In this document: piece by piece, positions 6,860-39,067 of the stretch | How the letters are laid out: every line of letters begins with the position of its first letter | Position numbering within the stretch: the first letter of the stretch is position 1 | Virus record (IMG/VR): IMGVR_UViG_3300037482_000218 | Location: 1-42,834 of that record | DNA length: 42,834 bases | Strand: one strand, 5' to 3' | DNA from: a virus | Lineage: Duplodnaviria; Caudoviricetes | Notes under the pieces: generated by a model | What the model was told of the DNA's origin: nothing | Database searches by the model: none | The model's input: only the letters and a program-made list of their open reading frames with translations | Made by a program: the position numbers and the translations under genes

Positions 6860-7254
6860 CGTACACGCCGGAGAACGTCTGGGCCGTGATTCGGGATTGG
6901 CAGCGGGTATTCTGTATCGGCGCGCGGTTCTCTGCCCGCGAGGAGAAGCTGTCCACCAAGCCGCCCCCGGCGCATGAGGCGGCGTTTGCGGGCACCTCAA
7001 CGGTCATAGCGGACATGGCGGCCGCGATTCAGTCCTTGCCGCCTGATTTGCTAACGGTGGTGCTCCTGGAGTCTCTGAGGACGTCCAGCTGGCGCACGTC
7101 GAACATGGACATGCACCGGCTCAGGATCGCCGACTACATGGACGTGACGCCGGGTGAGGTGACAAAGATGCTCCACCAGGCGGTGAGGCACATGGTGGAG
7201 CGGTTGAACGGGGTGGACGCGGTGACAGAGTTGCCGGCGGGCGTTACGGTTTAG
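6856..7254 (+). CDS. Sigma-70 region-4-like HTH protein, probable late-transcription activator
   Basis: AIQSLPP...IADYMDVTPGEVTKMLHQAVRHMVERLNG; last gene of early operon. Confidence 0.6.
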   Translation: MTYTPENVWAVIRDWQRVFCIGARFSAREEKLSTKPPPAHEAAFAGTSTVIADMAAAIQSLPPDLLTVVLLESLRTSSWRTSNMDMHRLRIADYMDVTPGEVTKMLHQAVRHMVERLNGVDAVTELPAGVTV

Positions 7255-7417
7255 TCCTGTACAGCGGTATTTGACGCGTGGCATGGGCAGTTGCAGCGCC
7301 GCGTGATGCCGTGACACTTAGCGACCCAATCCCAGCCGACGAATTCACGTACGCATTCATCGTGGCGTTCCCATTCGGGCTTGCAGGGCGTGAAGATTTC
7401 ATACCCCGTCTCATTGT

Positions 7418-7567
7418 TCATGCTTCCTTCTCCTTCCGTATGCGGGTCCGTGGCACTCCCCAGTAGATGCTCTTACAACGCGGCCCAGGGCAGCGCTTCG
7501 GGTTAGGTGTGCGGGGAGTCCAGGTGTAGTTGCAGCGTAAGCAGGTGAACGTGGGGAGCTTAACCAC
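7418..7567 (-). CDS. Small zinc-ribbon protein
   Basis: CLRCNYTWTPRTPNPKRCP..RCKSIYW plus basic tail. Confidence 0.7.
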   Translation of the reverse strand: MVKLPTFTCLRCNYTWTPRTPNPKRCPGPRCKSIYWGVPRTRIRKEKEA

Positions 7568-7856
7568 GGGCGTCCCCCTTAGCGGCGGCGATGGCGTCAT
7601 TGATGGCCGCGACGAGTTCGGGCGGGGCTTCGTCTACGTCACCCTCAACATCAGCGCTCCCGTATCTTGCTTCGTACAACCCGGCGTTGTCCTCGAACCA
7701 GCACCGCGCACGCTCCAGGGCCTCTAGCAGCTCCTCAGCGTGGGCGTGCAGGGGGCAGAGGGCGACCGTGTATGAGCGCTGGCCCCCTTTGGCGGGGTAG
7801 TCAGGCTCATTTGTAATCCGGCAGTCTGTGCAGGTTTGCGATGTCTCGGTGGTCAT
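7560..7856 (-). CDS. Hypothetical protein
   Basis: GGAGGAG RBS; CPLHAHAEELLEALE...AIAAAKG. Confidence 0.65.
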   Translation of the reverse strand: MTTETSQTCTDCRITNEPDYPAKGGQRSYTVALCPLHAHAEELLEALERARCWFEDNAGLYEARYGSADVEGDVDEAPPELVAAINDAIAAAKGDARG

Positions 7857-8053
7857 GCGTTGTTCTCCTCCTTGGCCTCCCGCCAGATTTGGTTTAGCAG
7901 GTGTTCGATGCATTGGGCCTCGATTTTGTACCAGCCCCGAGTTGCGTCTTCTGTTGTGATGTTGAGCGGGCCGTACTTGCTCCACTTGACGTTGTAGGGG
8001 CCATTGCGGGCGATGCGCTTGATGATGTCGTGGTCTACGATGAATTCCCTCAC
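7853..8053 (-). CDS. Hypothetical protein
   Basis: GTGA and ATGA coupling. Confidence 0.55.
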   Translation of the reverse strand: MREFIVDHDIIKRIARNGPYNVKWSKYGPLNITTEDATRGWYKIEAQCIEHLLNQIWREAKEENNA

Positions 8054-8658
8054 GCCTTCACCTGCCCAGTCCAGCGGCACTTGGCGCAGGTTTGGCCGTC
8101 GCACGCAGGGCAGGTTACATGTGTGGGCAGGCCCTGCAACTGGCGCACCCGGTCCCGTTGCTTGGAGATGTTGCCGTTCAGGTTCGACAGGGCGTACGCC
8201 GGGAACGCTCCGCCCTTCATCTGCCAGGCGCAGACGCGGGTTAGTGTCTGCCATTCCTTGCGCTGGGCGTCATCGAGCAGCGAGGAATCGGGTGCTCCCT
8301 TGCGGCATGAGGCGTTGAAGGCCTTGATGCGGTTGCGCTGACCCTCCAGGTCGGCGATCCGCTCCTGTAGCTGCTCGATGGCGTCGGGGTCGTCGGAGTA
8401 GATAGCGCGGTCTGCTGCGTCCTCGATCCCGGCGGCGCGGCCACGCATCTTGTCTGCGAGCTTCAGGCTTTCGTGAGTGCGCTCCATCTTGGCGTACAGC
8501 CGCGTACGCTGGGGGATGTTGCCGGGCTGAGTCCAGAACGCGGTATCGCCGGCATAATGCTCACGCTCTTTGTAGACCGTCTCCGCCTTCTCTTCGCGTT
8601 TCTCCGCCCAACCGCGCAGGCGTTCGGCCTTCGCTAGGCGGCGCTCTCTGTACGTCAT
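8050..8658 (-). CDS. DUF3560-domain protein
   Basis: ERRLAKAERLRGWAEK...AIYSDDPDAIEQLQERIADLE...LSNLNGNI; AAGGAGG RBS. Confidence 0.75.
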   Translation of the reverse strand: MTYRERRLAKAERLRGWAEKREEKAETVYKEREHYAGDTAFWTQPGNIPQRTRLYAKMERTHESLKLADKMRGRAAGIEDAADRAIYSDDPDAIEQLQERIADLEGQRNRIKAFNASCRKGAPDSSLLDDAQRKEWQTLTRVCAWQMKGGAFPAYALSNLNGNISKQRDRVRQLQGLPTHVTCPACDGQTCAKCRWTGQVKA

Positions 8659-8735
8659 CGCGTTCCTCCTTTGCGTTTCGTCCTGCTTGGATCGCAGGCG
8701 CGGTCCGCCGCGGCGGATTCTACCGCGTCCGGGAT

Positions 8736-8957
8736 TCAGATGCCGCTCGCAATGCGTGTTTGGCAGTGGCAGACGTGAAGACCGAACACGCTCGGTTCCA
8801 GTCTGGCAAGTTTGCGCTGGGCCTTACCACTCTTTAGGGCCGAAAGCGCCGCCGCCTTGCTTCTCCAGGTCTTTCGTTCCCCGCCTTTGAGGGTTAGCCA
8901 GCTGCCATCTTCACTCAAGTGATAGTGCTGCCATTCGTTGTTCGTCGGTTTGGTCAT
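8736..8957 (-). CDS. Hypothetical protein
   Basis: AAGGAGG RBS. Confidence 0.65.
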   Translation of the reverse strand: MTKPTNNEWQHYHLSEDGSWLTLKGGERKTWRSKAAALSALKSGKAQRKLARLEPSVFGLHVCHCQTRIASGI

Positions 8958-9011
8958 CTCGTGTTCCTCCTTTGCGTAGTCCTTGATTCCGTCGCTACAA
9001 TAGCCTGGGAT

Positions 9012-9236
9012 TCAGGCGGTCTCTGCTAGTTGGATAGTGGCGCTTGGTGCGGCAGCGCGAATAGCAGTGGCGAGCTTGCTATCGATGGCGTAGGACTCTA
9101 CCTCGTCACGCAGTGAGTCGCAGGCTTCCGCCAAAGGGTTGGCATCATAAACACCAATGTCCAAGGCGGGTTCGTCGCGATCAACCCAGACCTCGACGAC
9201 GATTCGTGTAAACAGGATTCGTGGCTTGATTTCCAT
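9012..9236 (-). CDS. Hypothetical protein, first gene of leftward cassette
   Basis: AAGGAG RBS just downstream of promoter. Confidence 0.65.
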   Translation of the reverse strand: MEIKPRILFTRIVVEVWVDRDEPALDIGVYDANPLAEACDSLRDEVESYAIDSKLATAIRAAAPSATIQLAETA

Positions 9237-9431: not shown

Positions 9432-9887
9432 GTGACATCCAACGTAGAGACGAAGGCCAAGGTAATCGCTCTGGTTCGTGGCGGTGAGACGGCCACGAAG
9501 GCCGCAGAGATTGTCAGCCGGGAGCTGGGCGTTGTCATTCCAGAGCGGACCGCCCAATACTGGGCGATGCAGTTACGCAATTTTGCGGACGAAGAGAAGG
9601 ACCGCACCCTTCTGGACCTCACCTACGCTGTAGCCGTCAGGGCCTCCCACCTCCAGCTGGAATCCCTGGATGAACTGGTAGAGAGCGGCGAGCCGTTGTA
9701 CAAGCACGGAAGCATGCTCAACTTCTACGCCGGCACAGCCTCAGACAAGCTCCAGCGCCGGCAAGAGCTGGCCGACCGCGCCAGGCACAACCAACCGCCC
9801 CAGATCCACGGCCAATACGTGATTGTCGTACCAGGCCTGCCCGAGCCCCCAAGTATTGAAGCGGAGTATCGTGAGGTAGAGGAATGA
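9432..9887 (+). CDS. Putative terminase small subunit
   Basis: N-terminal HTH-like region, helical core, GGAGG RBS, first gene of late region upstream of TerL. Confidence 0.5.
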   Translation: MTSNVETKAKVIALVRGGETATKAAEIVSRELGVVIPERTAQYWAMQLRNFADEEKDRTLLDLTYAVAVRASHLQLESLDELVESGEPLYKHGSMLNFYAGTASDKLQRRQELADRARHNQPPQIHGQYVIVVPGLPEPPSIEAEYREVEE

Positions 9888-10260
9888 ACGCGCCCTACCG
9901 TCAGCACACTACATTCAAGCAGCGCATCAGGGAGCGCGATGGTGACAATACGCGAGCGTCAAGGATGGCAGCGCTCTTCACGGGTGAAGGTGCGTAGGTG
10001 TTTGCCCATCCTCATCCACTCTCACTCGTAAACCACGGGAAGGGCTCCATCCGCACCTACCCAGACAAGGGCGTTTGGTTCGCACTATACACATTAAGAC
10101 AAGCATTATCAGATACGAATCCGTTATTCTAGTGCCCCTGGGTGGGGTGTGCGTATCTGAATCGCCCCAGGGAGCGGCGCTAAGTTAAGAGGTATACGGG
10201 GTGCCTGGAACGGGAATCAGGGACGGGTTGGTGGTGGTACACCGTGGCGGTACTATCGCG

Positions 10261-11054: not shown

Positions 11055-11337
11055 GTTGTCGATGGCCCAGCGGAAGGCGCAGCGGGAGTTGTGGTTAGCT
11101 CAAGCTCTGGCGGAGTACCAGCGGCGACGGTCGATGGAGTGCACGGCTGTCCCCTTTAGCGATAGAGATGCTCTGGACGAGTTGGAAAAGGCCGTCTTTG
11201 GGCTCCTCTATAAATTCCATGTTGAAACGGACTGCGGGAAGCCCGAACACTGGGCTGAGTGTGAGCGACTGGTGGAGCAAGTGGGTTGGATTAATTGGGA
11301 GACGTGGCGTGATGTTGCGCTGGATTTGGAAGTCTGA
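11044..11337 (+). CDS. Hypothetical protein
   Basis: Tightly packed ORF. Confidence 0.55.
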   Translation: MMLELSMAQRKAQRELWLAQALAEYQRRRSMECTAVPFSDRDALDELEKAVFGLLYKFHVETDCGKPEHWAECERLVEQVGWINWETWRDVALDLEV

Positions 11338-11621
11338 TGTTTAGCTTCCTCGCGCGGATCAGGTTCCAGTGGCCGGTGCGCATACAGCGGTATCCGTTCA
11401 TCCCGGCGACCGGGTCACAGGGTCATATCCAGATCAACGCTGAGGCGGATGACGTCTTGGATCAAGTCGGGTACGTGGAGAGCCAGCTGGCATCAGCCTG
11501 GGCCGAACGCGTGGACAGCTTCCCCTGGCCCTACCTAGAAAAGACCACTGCGGACGAGATCGACGCTTTGATTGCAGACGGGTTTACGATTGGCTACTCA
11601 GAGGAGACCACCCCAGACTAA
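11337..11621 (+). CDS. Hypothetical protein
   Basis: TGATG coupling. Confidence 0.55.
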   Translation: MFSFLARIRFQWPVRIQRYPFIPATGSQGHIQINAEADDVLDQVGYVESQLASAWAERVDSFPWPYLEKTTADEIDALIADGFTIGYSEETTPD

Positions 11622-11836
11622 TGGATGCTGAGGGAACCGGGATTACCCGTGAAGCGCTCTATGCCATGTGGAAGAATATGACTGGCGGGGCGCTTCGTCC
11701 GTCTTTCTGTGTGGTTAACGAAGCGGTGGCGTTCGCCGCCGGATTGCCGCTGGGTTCAGCGCAGCCCTGGGGCGTCGTGGAGCGCAGAATGTCTTATATC
11801 TGGGGATTAAAGGATGACCGTTCTAGGCTAACTTGA
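11621..11836 (+). CDS. Hypothetical protein
   Basis: TAATG coupling, GAGGAG RBS. Confidence 0.5.
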   Translation: MDAEGTGITREALYAMWKNMTGGALRPSFCVVNEAVAFAAGLPLGSAQPWGVVERRMSYIWGLKDDRSRLT

Positions 11837-13146
11837 CTACCGCCACCGCCCGTCCTGATGCGCCTGTATTCGGGCGCATCGAACTATTGGCCGGGCCTCA
11901 GGCGGACTTCGTGATGTCCGCGGCCCCCTTCCCCGGCCTCTTCGGGGGGCGCGGTTCCGGGAAGACGGTCGCCTCTGTCGTCAAGGAATTCATGGGGGCG
12001 ACGACCTATCCAGGGTCAGCCGGGTGTATTACAGAGCCGACCTACAAACAGCACTTCCGCGTTCTCCTCCCGGTGTTCCGTAGGCTTTTTGGGGCCGGTG
12101 AGGGGCCAATCTGGGAGTTCAAGAAGGCGGACATGGAAATCCGCTGGGTGAACGGCTCCTCGACTTATCTTGGCTACGCGGAAGACCCTGAATCGGTCCG
12201 TGGCCTCACCCTTGCCCGCTTCAATCTTGACGAAGCCCGCGTCGGTAAGCAGCACGAGACGTTTATGAACCTCCAGGGCTGCCTGCGGCAGGAGGGCTTC
12301 CCCCATCAGGGTTCGGTTACGACTACGCCCGCGGGAAAGCGCCACTGGCTCTACTACCGCTGGGTGCAAAAAAAGCTTCCGTGGGAGGAGGTCAACCTGC
12401 CGTGGGAGGACTATAAGTTCTTCCTCGCCGATTCAGAGACGAACACCCACAACCCGCCAGAATTCCTGACTCGGCTCAGGGCCTCGTTCGGTGGCACGCG
12501 CTGGGCCGAGCAGGAAATCGGCGGTCAGTTCGTCGTCTTCGAGGGTCAGGCGTTCCCCAACTTCAACGAGGATATCCACGTCCGGCGCCCGCCGCCTGAC
12601 ATGCGCTGGCGCCGTCAGGTCACCGGTATGGACTGGGGAGCGATCCGTCCCACTGCTGTCTATGAGGTCTGTCAGGACCACGACAACCGGGTGTGGGTGA
12701 CCCGCGAATTCTATAAATCGAGATGCACGGAGACGGAACTCCTGAACGCCCTCGGCGAATTCCCGCCGAGGGTTTATTGCGACCCCTCCGCGAAGGACGT
12801 CATCGAGTCGATGAACCGTCATGGAGTGCAGGCCCGCAAGGCCCAGTCCAACGACTTCGCCCTGCGCGTCCGGCTGGTGGGCTCCCGTCTGGCCCTCGAC
12901 CCCGGCTCCGGTCAGCCCGGAATGTACATCTCTCCGGACTGTCCCAACCTGATCGAGGAGATCGCTGGCCTGATGTACGCCAAGCCCAGGGGGATGGACG
13001 AATACTACTCAGACCGCTGGGAACCGGGGTCGAACGATCACGGCTTCGATGGCGTGTCCTATGCCTTGCAGGAGATCGATACAGGCATGAGGGGTCGTCC
13101 TCAGCCATCAGTTGTGTTCCAGCGCTGGGGTCATGGCAGGAGATAA
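11833..13146 (+). CDS. terL: Terminase large subunit
   Basis: Walker A GGRGSGKT, Walker B FNLDEA, TTTP motif, nuclease GMDWG, YCDPS, NDHGFDG. Confidence 0.95.
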   Translation: MTTATARPDAPVFGRIELLAGPQADFVMSAAPFPGLFGGRGSGKTVASVVKEFMGATTYPGSAGCITEPTYKQHFRVLLPVFRRLFGAGEGPIWEFKKADMEIRWVNGSSTYLGYAEDPESVRGLTLARFNLDEARVGKQHETFMNLQGCLRQEGFPHQGSVTTTPAGKRHWLYYRWVQKKLPWEEVNLPWEDYKFFLADSETNTHNPPEFLTRLRASFGGTRWAEQEIGGQFVVFEGQAFPNFNEDIHVRRPPPDMRWRRQVTGMDWGAIRPTAVYEVCQDHDNRVWVTREFYKSRCTETELLNALGEFPPRVYCDPSAKDVIESMNRHGVQARKAQSNDFALRVRLVGSRLALDPGSGQPGMYISPDCPNLIEEIAGLMYAKPRGMDEYYSDRWEPGSNDHGFDGVSYALQEIDTGMRGRPQPSVVFQRWGHGRR

Positions 13147-37987: not shown

Positions 37988-38062
37988 CGCGTCGTAGAGC
38001 AGTGGTAGCTCGCCGGGCTCATAACTCGGAGGTCGCGGGTTCGAATCCCGCCGGCGCTACCA
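37988..38062 (+). tRNA. Initiator tRNA-fMet (CAU)
   Basis: Full cloverleaf; C1-U72 mismatch, A11-U24, CTCATAA loop, TTCGAAT, encoded ACCA. Confidence 0.92.
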
Positions 38063-38084
38063 TTATACTAGGGGCTTGGCGGCG

Positions 38085-38156
38085 GCCCCACTAGCTCAAC
38101 GGTAGAGCACTGGCCGTATCAGCCAGCGGTTCCCGGTTCGAATCCGGGGTGGGGCG
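38085..38156 (+). tRNA. tRNA-like gene with aberrant anticodon loop (nominal UAU)
   Basis: Perfect stems GCCCCAC/GTGGGGC, GCTC/GAGC, CTGGC/GCCAG, CCCGG/CCGGG; loop CGTATCA; no CCA. Confidence 0.8.
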
Positions 38157-38181: not shown

Positions 38182-38391
38182 CTATCGCCAGAGTTTCGAA
38201 GCCTCGATCAGGATGGCCGCCTCCCTGCCCGTCACGGTTGGAATGCGGCGCTTTAGCATGGCGACGGAGAGCGTCGCCGGGTGCTCGACGCGGAGCGCGC
38301 AGGCCGTCTTGAGGAGACAGACGGCGCAGAGGTGTCCTTTGCCGTCGCAGATGCAATCGAGAGGCTGGTGTGGGCGCTTCATGATGGTCAC
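38182..38391 (-). CDS. Small protein: Cys/His zinc motif plus FtsK-gamma-like helical domain
   Basis: CICDGKGHLCAVC, then LLKTACALRVEH...SVAMLKRR...AAILIE; GGGGGA RBS. Confidence 0.55.
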   Translation of the reverse strand: MTIMKRPHQPLDCICDGKGHLCAVCLLKTACALRVEHPATLSVAMLKRRIPTVTGREAAILIEASKLWR

Positions 38392-38430
38392 GACGGGCGC
38401 TCCCCCTTCGCGCGTTGCATGTGGCCGGTG

Positions 38431-38524
38431 TTATGTGAACGTTGACGATAACATGAAACCTATATATGTTATGTAAACCCCGACGTTTAGGCCGCTAGAT
38501 AGCGGATGCGAGGTTATGTCGACA
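38431..38524. other. Cluster of dif-like Xer arms (candidate attP)
   Basis: TTATGTGAACG 38431, TTATGTAAACC 38469 (preceded by TATATG), TTATGTCGACA 38514; GTTGACGATAA 38441. Confidence 0.45.
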
Positions 38525-38526
38525 AG

Positions 38527-38772
38527 CTAGTGCGAACCGGATTCTATTTCCTTGACGAGCTTCCAAAGGGGCTGGTGGCGGGCGCGCGCGATCTTACGGA
38601 GGTTGTCGAGCCGAGGCTCTTCCTCGCCCTTAGCCATGTTATGCAACGTGGCTTGGGGCATCCCTACCGCTCGCGCTGCTGCGTTGATGCTGCCGTGCTC
38701 CTTCTTTAGCTCCTCAATTACTTTGAGGAGTCCGGTCATATCAACTAAGCAGTCTAAAGTTTGAGTCGCCAT
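38527..38772 (-). CDS. XRE-family HTH repressor
   Basis: SINAAARAVGMPQATLHNMAKGEEEPRLDNLRKIA. Confidence 0.85.
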   Translation of the reverse strand: MATQTLDCLVDMTGLLKVIEELKKEHGSINAAARAVGMPQATLHNMAKGEEEPRLDNLRKIARARHQPLWKLVKEIESGSH

Positions 38773-38893
38773 TAGTCAACAAATAATATCACACTTTCTA
38801 GACAGATTGACACGTTATGGGCCGTTTTGGTATTGACTTGATTTAGCGTGGGCGTCTAGAATCCTAGTCGCACAAAGTAGACTAGGAGGCCAG
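38773..38893. promoter_or_regulatory. Divergent promoter/operator region
   Basis: Rightward TTGACT-18-TAGAAT (38833-38862); leftward TGaTATTAT near repressor start; inverted TCTAGAC/GTCTAGA and CTAGTC/GACTAG. Confidence 0.65.
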
Positions 38894-39067
38894 ATGGCGC
38901 GACGCACCCTCTACCCCGAAGGCAGCAAGCAACTGAACGTGATTCTCCCTGCCTCTCTCAAGGACGAGATCGACCGGCAGGCCCAGGCCGAGCAGATTCC
39001 CACTTCAACGCTCGTCGTCCGCATTCTCAGCAAGGCGATGGCGGAAGCGGTGCCCGTTCATGCGTGA
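38894..39067 (+). CDS. Ribbon-helix-helix (Arc/CopG-like) regulator
   Basis: AGGAGG RBS; KQLNVILPASLKDEIDRQAQAEQIPTSTLVVRIL; not in ORF track. Confidence 0.8.
   Translation: MARRTLYPEGSKQLNVILPASLKDEIDRQAQAEQIPTSTLVVRILSKAMAEAVPVHA

Follow-up and report, generated by a model that had tools for sequence, protein, structure and literature searches.

A candidate integrase-free lysogeny module with an FtsK-gamma-like protein and dif-like sites in a tailed phage likely of Chloroflexota

The described systems closest to the locus presented here are the mobile elements that depend on XerC and XerD, recombinases of the host, among them the Vibrio satellite TLC with its activator XafT, and the gamma domain of FtsK, which activates XerD at dif. 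The accessible text of the structural work on E. coli gamma gives RQFRIGYNR as the activating peptide and R1289 as the key XerD contact, and reports that the active site stayed inactive in the XerD-gamma crystal (PMC5052618). According to the available portion of the work on XafT, free FtsK-gamma is a poor activator unless it is fused or delivered by translocation, and the XerC side of the TLC attP faces xafT (PMC6744903). A further study, in the part of it that is accessible, describes FtsK-gamma as working poorly on the TLC attP, sites with a decayed XerD arm as poor FtsK substrates in need of an activator, and XafT-driven integration as requiring the G at position 5 (G5) of the XerD arm (PMC9226527).

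The window, by which we mean the whole stretch of DNA analysed (42,834 nucleotides), has a terminal overlap of 127 nt that makes the contig circular, and its completeness is put at 100% by CheckV; the genome is that of a 42.7-kb tailed phage, likely of Chloroflexota. Besides a large terminase subunit (11833..13146, plus strand; phrog_2, E 2e-27; Terminase_6N) it encodes a major head protein, an endolysin, replication initiators and a Holliday junction resolvase. A preliminary description of this DNA had noticed neither integrase nor ParA, and their absence holds: the window yielded no tyrosine recombinase and no PF07508 serine recombinase, and neither integrase nor ParA was found among 84 proteins compared with Pfam (81 of them the window's) or among 77 compared with PHROGs. 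The relative G423 also has no integrase of its own, and the partial relative G421 carries a short tyrosine recombinase. In the relative L038 a 208-residue tyrosine recombinase consisting of the catalytic domain only (11074-11700, minus strand) lies about 0.9 kb downstream of the gamma-like gene. What the window does carry is a mimic of host dif, the host being assigned from this motif and from the labels of homologues. Since an integrase is absent and a copy of host dif lies between a repressor gene and a gene for a gamma-like protein, integration driven by XerCD is likely. We therefore read the locus as an integrase-free lysogeny module in which the phage gamma-like protein switches on host XerD, and XerCD joins the phage site to the dif of Dehalococcoidia, and assign this reading a probability of about 0.5.

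A search pattern built from the dif-like 28-mers of the regions upstream of the phage genes matched at least 120 genome stretches, 110 of those listed being labelled Chloroflexota, and the consensus among the matches listed is (G/A/T)GTTCGCACTA TA(A/T)ATG TTATGT(A/C)AAGT. As the pattern was derived from phages, the match between phage and host is, taken alone, partly circular. With 2 mismatches allowed, 137 of 301 Dehalococcoidia genomes match, 135 of them in single copy, against 7 matches for the reversed control; the scan includes the unpublished genome G263, and no claim depends on it alone. Across 19 complete chromosomes the site lies at a median of 160 degrees from dnaA, and in 14 at 150 degrees or more (p 6e-8; for G003, which has several copies, the first listed was taken), while in G019 it lies at 49 degrees. 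The motif thus has the 11-6-11 layout, the single copy and the position near the host terminus that mark a dif site, and judged by these sequence features it is likely the dif of the class Dehalococcoidia. Its consensus differs from the Dehalococcoides dif prediction given in the accessible part of an earlier report (PMC3025954). The proposal that the phage arms are dif sequence is accordingly sustained, as they equal the host terminus motif with its spacer included. FtsK-gamma is present in 56 of 61 genomes of the class, and the XerD cut-off was passed by 28 of 41. An extra inverted XerD hexamer occurs within 100 bp beyond the XerD arm of host dif in 40 of the 110 matches listed and is rarer elsewhere (4 cases upstream, 2 in the following 100 bp), a host counterpart of the extra arms in the window described below. 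On the G003:C1 chromosome, at least seven dif-like sites are found at about 997,900-1,035,600 and 2,445,900-2,452,700 (L353-L356), several of them surrounding transposase and restriction-like cargo in a manner recalling pdif modules.

In the window, the immunity region runs from a ribbon-helix-helix gene (plus strand) through a divergent XRE repressor (minus strand), a spacer of 135 bp and the 69-codon gamma-like gene (minus strand) to two tRNA genes. The repressor, recognised already in the preliminary description, has 81 residues (38527..38772, minus strand) and is identified by Pfam HTH_3 (E 2.3e-6) and by PHROG repressors; it lies upstream of the gamma-like gene in the same orientation. 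The ribbon-helix-helix regulator (38894..39067, plus strand; RHH_5, E 5.9e-6) takes a Cro-like position, and a promoter scan places divergent sigma70-like promoters between the two genes (38833-38862, plus strand; 38751-38779, minus strand). The tRNA genes (Met-CAT and Ile-TAT; 37988..38156, plus strand) converge on the gamma-like gene, and since tRNAs stand directly downstream of it in 2 of 27 related loci (L004 and L018), they are not a constant part of the module; on this ground and because an integrase is absent, integration at a tRNA was dismissed. A tRNA called as Ile with anticodon TAT, which is rare in bacteria, occurs both at 38085-38156 of the window and at 2197-2271 of L010.

The spacer between repressor and gamma-like gene holds the dif-like 28-mer CATGAAACCTA TATATG TTATGTAAACC (38452..38479, plus strand), the candidate attP. 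A position weight matrix (PWM) made from 107 host sites among the matches listed, when run on the window, scores it 16.8, the second best value in the genome, and a score of 16 or more is attained anywhere by about 2% of block shuffles. A host-type spacer, TATATG (38463-38468), and the host-like XerD arm TTATGTAAACC are joined here to a decayed XerC arm, CATGAAACCTA, with a 4 of 11 match and a PWM score of -9.0, so that the two arms are not both intact. XerD binds more strongly than XerC and recruits it, and the decay of the XerC arm is therefore likely tolerated. The three XerD-arm-like 11-mers noted earlier downstream of the repressor are indeed present, at 38431, 38469 and 38514, and make up every TTATGTNRA in the window, for which chance gives a mean of 0.45 and 1 of 100 shuffles reached 3; the first, TTATGTGAACG (38431..38441, plus strand), has no XerC partner, and the third is TTATGTCGACA (38514..38524, plus strand). 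The designation of GTTGACGATAA (38441..38451, minus strand) as a XerC arm fails, for it agrees with the class XerC arm in 4 of 11 positions, and its distance from the nearest XerD arm is 17 bp rather than 6; by its sequence and the promoter scan it reads better as a XerD-like arm in inverted orientation that has gained one base, overlapping a -35-like hexamer of the plus strand. A perfect XerC arm, GGTTCGCACTA, lies isolated over the last codons and stop of the repressor (38528..38538, minus strand) and stands in dif geometry with no partner; a similar arm in the sense of the gene occurs in 15 of 21 repressor-bearing loci and is itself the main site in two. For the window, a folded single-strand attP of the CTX type was dismissed, as the perfect XerC arm has no inverted one to pair with; in relatives of the L023 type a hairpin appears possible by eye. 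We consider it highly probable that the site at 38452-38479 is a Xer substrate.

The pairing of gene and arms that the preliminary description expected in related phages is found in most of them. From 41 loci fetched, 8 duplicates, 4 with short upstream DNA and 4 partial matches were removed (three of these look spurious, and the fourth, L030, looks real and is without a site), leaving 26 with the window included. In 23 of these the 260 nt upstream of the gene hold a dif-like 28-mer that is significant against shuffles of the same locus; in L005, L007 and L013, as in L030, the gene stands without an adjacent site. The arms vary among the 23 sites, 12 of which have a good XerC arm and a decayed XerD arm, 6 both arms, 4 (the window among them) a decayed XerC arm and 1 another arrangement, and if the scan demands a host-like spacer, each of the 23 provides one. 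Position 5 is G, as XafT-driven integration requires, in 6 of 7 distinct decayed XerD arms (p ~0.004, or 0.011 if two related arms are merged), and the XerC side is turned toward the gene in 18 of the 23. In L010, L016, L028, L029 and L031 the site runs opposite to that of the other 18 loci, and its two arms are near-intact. In L007 (319-2294) repressor and gene are kept apart by a transposase of IS1595-like type, a tRNA-Leu call and one further ORF.

The repeats might instead be operators of the repressor or promoter boxes, with the gene encoding an ordinary zinc-HTH protein that resembles gamma by chance, and it is true that a pair of -35/-10-like boxes overlaps the arms, that an inverted XerD arm can contain TTGACA and that the structural matches of the protein described below are to generic HTH folds. 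This account, which the preliminary description had itself named as one that would undo its proposal, is very improbable in our judgement. The repressor-like ORFs next to the sites, 21 in all, were recognised from their position (in the window also by Pfam) and have a median identity of 26%, and the motif beside them is unchanged; a DNA motif that stays fixed as the repressors diverge is, we argue, not their operator. The motif moreover equals the host terminus site down to the spacer, promoter-like sites lie on the other side of the repressor, and the likeness to gamma exceeds that of every shuffle.

The gene itself (38182..38391, minus strand) is genuine, as the preliminary description had taken it to be, for a profile search in which 8000 candidates were scored yields 99 proteins, the window's own included; the named homologues come from marine sediment, one Anaerolineales bin and one Dehalococcoidia bin. 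The protein, a candidate XerD activator on the strength of its homologues, predicted structure and hhalign comparison, consists of an N-terminal CxC-x6-CxxC cluster and three helices. Both parts had been proposed earlier and both are borne out: the four cysteines and His37 are conserved in 92-93 of 93 aligned homologues (each of these and of Ser42, Arg48, Gly55 and Ala58 in 91-93), and AlphaFold models (pLDDT 81 and 87.5) have helices at residues 23-36, 43-49 and 55-67, after the last of which the protein stops, with the wing absent. The cysteine cluster is, from its pattern, likely a zinc site. Among 36 representatives of the family there is no protein of FtsK length, and the fusions comprise five to a C-terminal winged helix (P0100, P0102, P0103, P0109 and P0110) and one to an N-terminal XRE HTH (P0126); the representative P0127 looks false. 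Pfam finds only HTH or zinc-finger domains, and no DUF3653, in the protein and 24 tested homologues. In L005 (2874-3985) the homologue is followed after about 20 bp by a xerC-like gene, broken into parts in that assembly, which we count in favour of the proposed activator, although no repressor or dif was found near it, and in L013 (163-3649) it lies between genes for a universal stress protein (Usp) and clpB, a chromosome-like setting without dif.

The likeness to helices 1-3 of FtsK-gamma stands in part. With a host gamma alignment built on the top 30 of 56 FtsK matches in Dehalococcoidia, hhalign gives the family a probability of 42% (E 2.6e-4), and a comparison of trimmed-core profiles scores 23.1, above a maximum of 15.8 over 150 column shuffles. 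The host gamma profile matches the family at a median of 9.1 bits (reversed, -1.2), and on 9 phage records, with 118-662 competing six-frame ORFs each, it ranks the family ORF first in 6, second in 1 and below third in 2; the reverse search with the family profile over 401 host genomes gives 11 weak matches that include a host gamma-like C-terminus (L171). The shared pattern reads EHxRISTSLLQRRLRIGYPRAARL in the host and EHPDxLSVxMLKRRIPxxxGREAAxL in the phages, and the counterpart of E. coli R1289 in this alignment is Arg48, conserved in 92 of 93; the GY that is invariant in host gamma and lies within the activating peptide is replaced in the phage family, where the loop reads RRIPxxxGREAA. 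In a wide structure search the XerD-gamma complex 5dcf is matched over 44 residues with Z 4.5, an rmsd of 1.8 A and 20% identity, and 2ve8 with Z 4.0 and 22% identity; among the best 50 rows 5dcf has the lowest rmsd and 2ve8 the highest identity, the Z of 5dcf is tied with that of many generic HTH proteins, and FapR ranks first. The databases are silent: Pfam FtsK_gamma (PF09397), the model against which the preliminary description had wished the gene compared, does not match at E up to 1 or 10, PDB sequence searches return nothing significant, and Foldseek, the other comparison it had proposed, gives no FtsK-gamma among the best 50 of 88 matches and nothing significant. Atlas neighbours are unnamed clusters, generic HTH folds and one PemK-labelled cluster, which was not credited. 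The protein thus has, weakly, the three-helix core and sequence pattern of FtsK_gamma, with a fold match shared by other HTH proteins, and lacks the Pfam gathering score, the beta wing and the GY loop. The likeness is genuine but weak, below database significance, and a gamma ancestry of the 69-residue protein is probable.

Descent from gamma does not settle function, and the protein could be a decoy that blocks the action of FtsK on XerD, so shielding the prophage or stalling division, or else a DNA-binding regulator, readings that arise from the single surface with which gamma contacts XerD as well as KOPS DNA. The overlap of these contacts is documented in the accessible text on the E. coli complex (PMC5052618). 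The changed GY loop, the winged-helix fusions of five homologues and the host-like Usp/clpB context of the L013 homologue, where no dif occurs, all fit such a role. FtsK-gamma uses its wing on DNA, however, and the wing is what the phage protein lacks; furthermore, the decayed XerD arm of 12 of the 23 sites is of the kind that needs an activator, and no DUF3653, the XafT domain, appeared in Pfam scans of the window. On balance we regard a decoy or regulator as unlikely and activation of XerD as the better account of the gene.

Integrated copies were sought in 401 genomes of the class, which contain no clear family member beyond one distant match (L163); this homologue belongs to a small island, and 20 kb of its surroundings hold no match to dif. 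Of the 11 weak matches, 9 were recovered on re-scan, of which five were dismissed as one recurring off-target frame and two as unconvincing short frames. Neither a terminase nor a window ORF lies beside dif at the 120 host loci listed or in 8 further stretches (flanks of up to 3 kb, about 0.3 kb for 40 of the 120), and neither the genome-contig scan nor a single-sequence viral scan found the gene. Draft genomes lose prophages. Among the matches listed no loose contig end falls in the spacer, and the 26-kb contig of X1, which may be the source of the window, spans the repressor-side site unbroken, which says little on integration because contigs drop rare forms.

The best dif copy of the window, absent from the preliminary description, is a second one, GGTTCGCACTA TACACA TTAAGACAAGC (10077..10104, plus strand), with the large terminase on one side and a probable small-terminase gene on the other. 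Its PWM score is 26.6, the next after the repressor-side site is 4.7, and 200 shuffles peak at 20.2. The probable small terminase (9432..9887, plus strand), which has an N-terminal HTH, is assigned by position; no Pfam terminase matches its product, whose Atlas neighbours are unnamed viral HTH proteins. Just before it a block of reverse-strand ORFs (7251-9236, minus strand), one with DUF3560, breaks the run of forward genes. A motif scan of viral sequences gave 66 loci (L284-L349), with a large terminase within the flank in 48: profiling of 83 of the 121 nearby long ORFs found 37 terminase loci (26 clusters at 60% identity), and tblastn added 11. Short viral contigs are biased toward terminases, and among contigs of at least 25 kb a terminase is nearby in 12 of 16 (p 3e-4 for an assumed background of 0.3). 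Of the 37 profiled loci, 30 have the site upstream of the terminase and 7, which are T7-like, have it downstream, a group in which the dif copy lies between terminase and RNA polymerase. Of 16 terminase-side records one has a gamma-like gene and one a tyrosine recombinase; 15, including all 6 that are near-complete, have the site without the gene, which makes the terminase-side dif independent of the gamma-like protein. Six viral records do have the gene, and a terminase-side site is found in G000, G423 and G439, the other three being 45-59% complete. The terminase-side dif is a wider feature, separate from the gamma-like gene.

Phage P1 has loxP near pac, encodes its own Cre, and circularises its incoming genome through Cre and loxP. 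The window is like P1 in having a recombination site beside packaging genes (10077-10104) and unlike it in that only host XerCD is available. A life cycle without integration may be envisaged along these lines, with XerCD resolving dimers of a plasmid-like prophage or circularising a terminally redundant genome at the terminase-side dif; the place of the best dif copy before the terminase, the frequency of terminases at the viral loci and on the longer contigs, and the failure to find a prophage junction all speak for it. It is nonetheless a doubtful explanation of the module, since neither ParA nor another partition gene was found with Pfam or PHROGs, since the terminase-side dif so seldom comes with the gene, and since the gene accompanies the repressor-side site, in a layout like that of known integration modules.

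Under the integrative reading that we prefer, the gamma-like gene would be read together with the repressor after infection. Its product would contact XerD through the arginine of helices 2-3 and would license a XerD-first exchange between phage site and dif, free of septal FtsK; the putative zinc-binding cysteines may help a free gamma-like domain to dimerise or to be tethered. A crossover in the spacer would put repressor and activator at opposite ends of the prophage, as in CTX-I phages, and by parting the gene from the repressor promoter could limit excision. Against this model stand the lack of an integrated copy, a likeness to gamma that is below database significance, the altered GY loop, the poor activity of free gamma, the decayed XerC arm of the window, the loci L005, L007, L013 and L030 with their gene but no adjacent site, and the tyrosine recombinase of L038. 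As a tentative broader proposal, which we rate at somewhat less than even odds and only as a whole, tailed phages of Dehalococcoidia captured a host FtsK-gamma and trimmed it to a free, zinc-stabilised activator for decayed dif sites, a second and independent origin of Xer activators, and a wider set of phages keeps a terminase-side dif at which host XerCD would close their genomes or resolve them.

If the model is true, mobile elements have a second route besides XafT for escaping FtsK control, and a lone-acting gamma derivative of 69 residues would be a minimal probe of how XerD is switched. The Dehalococcoidia dif consensus can help to assign hosts to orphan phages, the motif flags integrase-free phages as possibly temperate, and the dif copy beside the terminase offers a lead of its own that can be tested. 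A literature search, mostly of titles and abstract openings and with few subscription papers, brought up no phage FtsK-gamma mimic, no dif phage of Dehalococcoidia and no terminase-side dif.

Compared with described systems, the module most resembles TLC and XafT in that a double-stranded dif mimic is flanked on its XerC side by a candidate XerD activator, and in having a decayed arm, a retained G5 and no integrase. The carrier, in contrast, is a tailed phage and not a satellite, and the protein lies outside the XafT family and resembles FtsK-gamma with an added Cys4 cluster, whereas XafT is described in the accessible text as an XRE-HTH joined to DUF3653 and without FtsK homology (PMC6744903); the XRE fusion of P0126 does recall the XafT architecture. 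With CTX-I and the dif-type DJR phages the locus shares a repressor, a small regulator and an attP resembling dif, but those phages infect Vibrio, have no tail, and possess XafT-type proteins and junctions that were verified, and the activator fold of the window is another. From FtsK gamma (PF09397; 5dcf, 2ve8) the protein keeps the three-helix core, the pattern EH..S.S.L.RR....AA.L and the helix-2 arginine, and departs in being free-standing and wingless, in having the GY loop replaced with a one-residue insertion and in its extra Cys cluster. Legionella phage LME-1 is likewise a tailed phage on host dif/Xer and differs in being a T7-like phage with the single recombinase XerL, as far as the accessible parts of two reports go (PMC9765430, PMC12407071); tailed phages that exploit Xer in this way are thus already known, and the comparison suggests that what is new here is the origin of the activator, joined by the class of the host and by the dif copy at the terminase.
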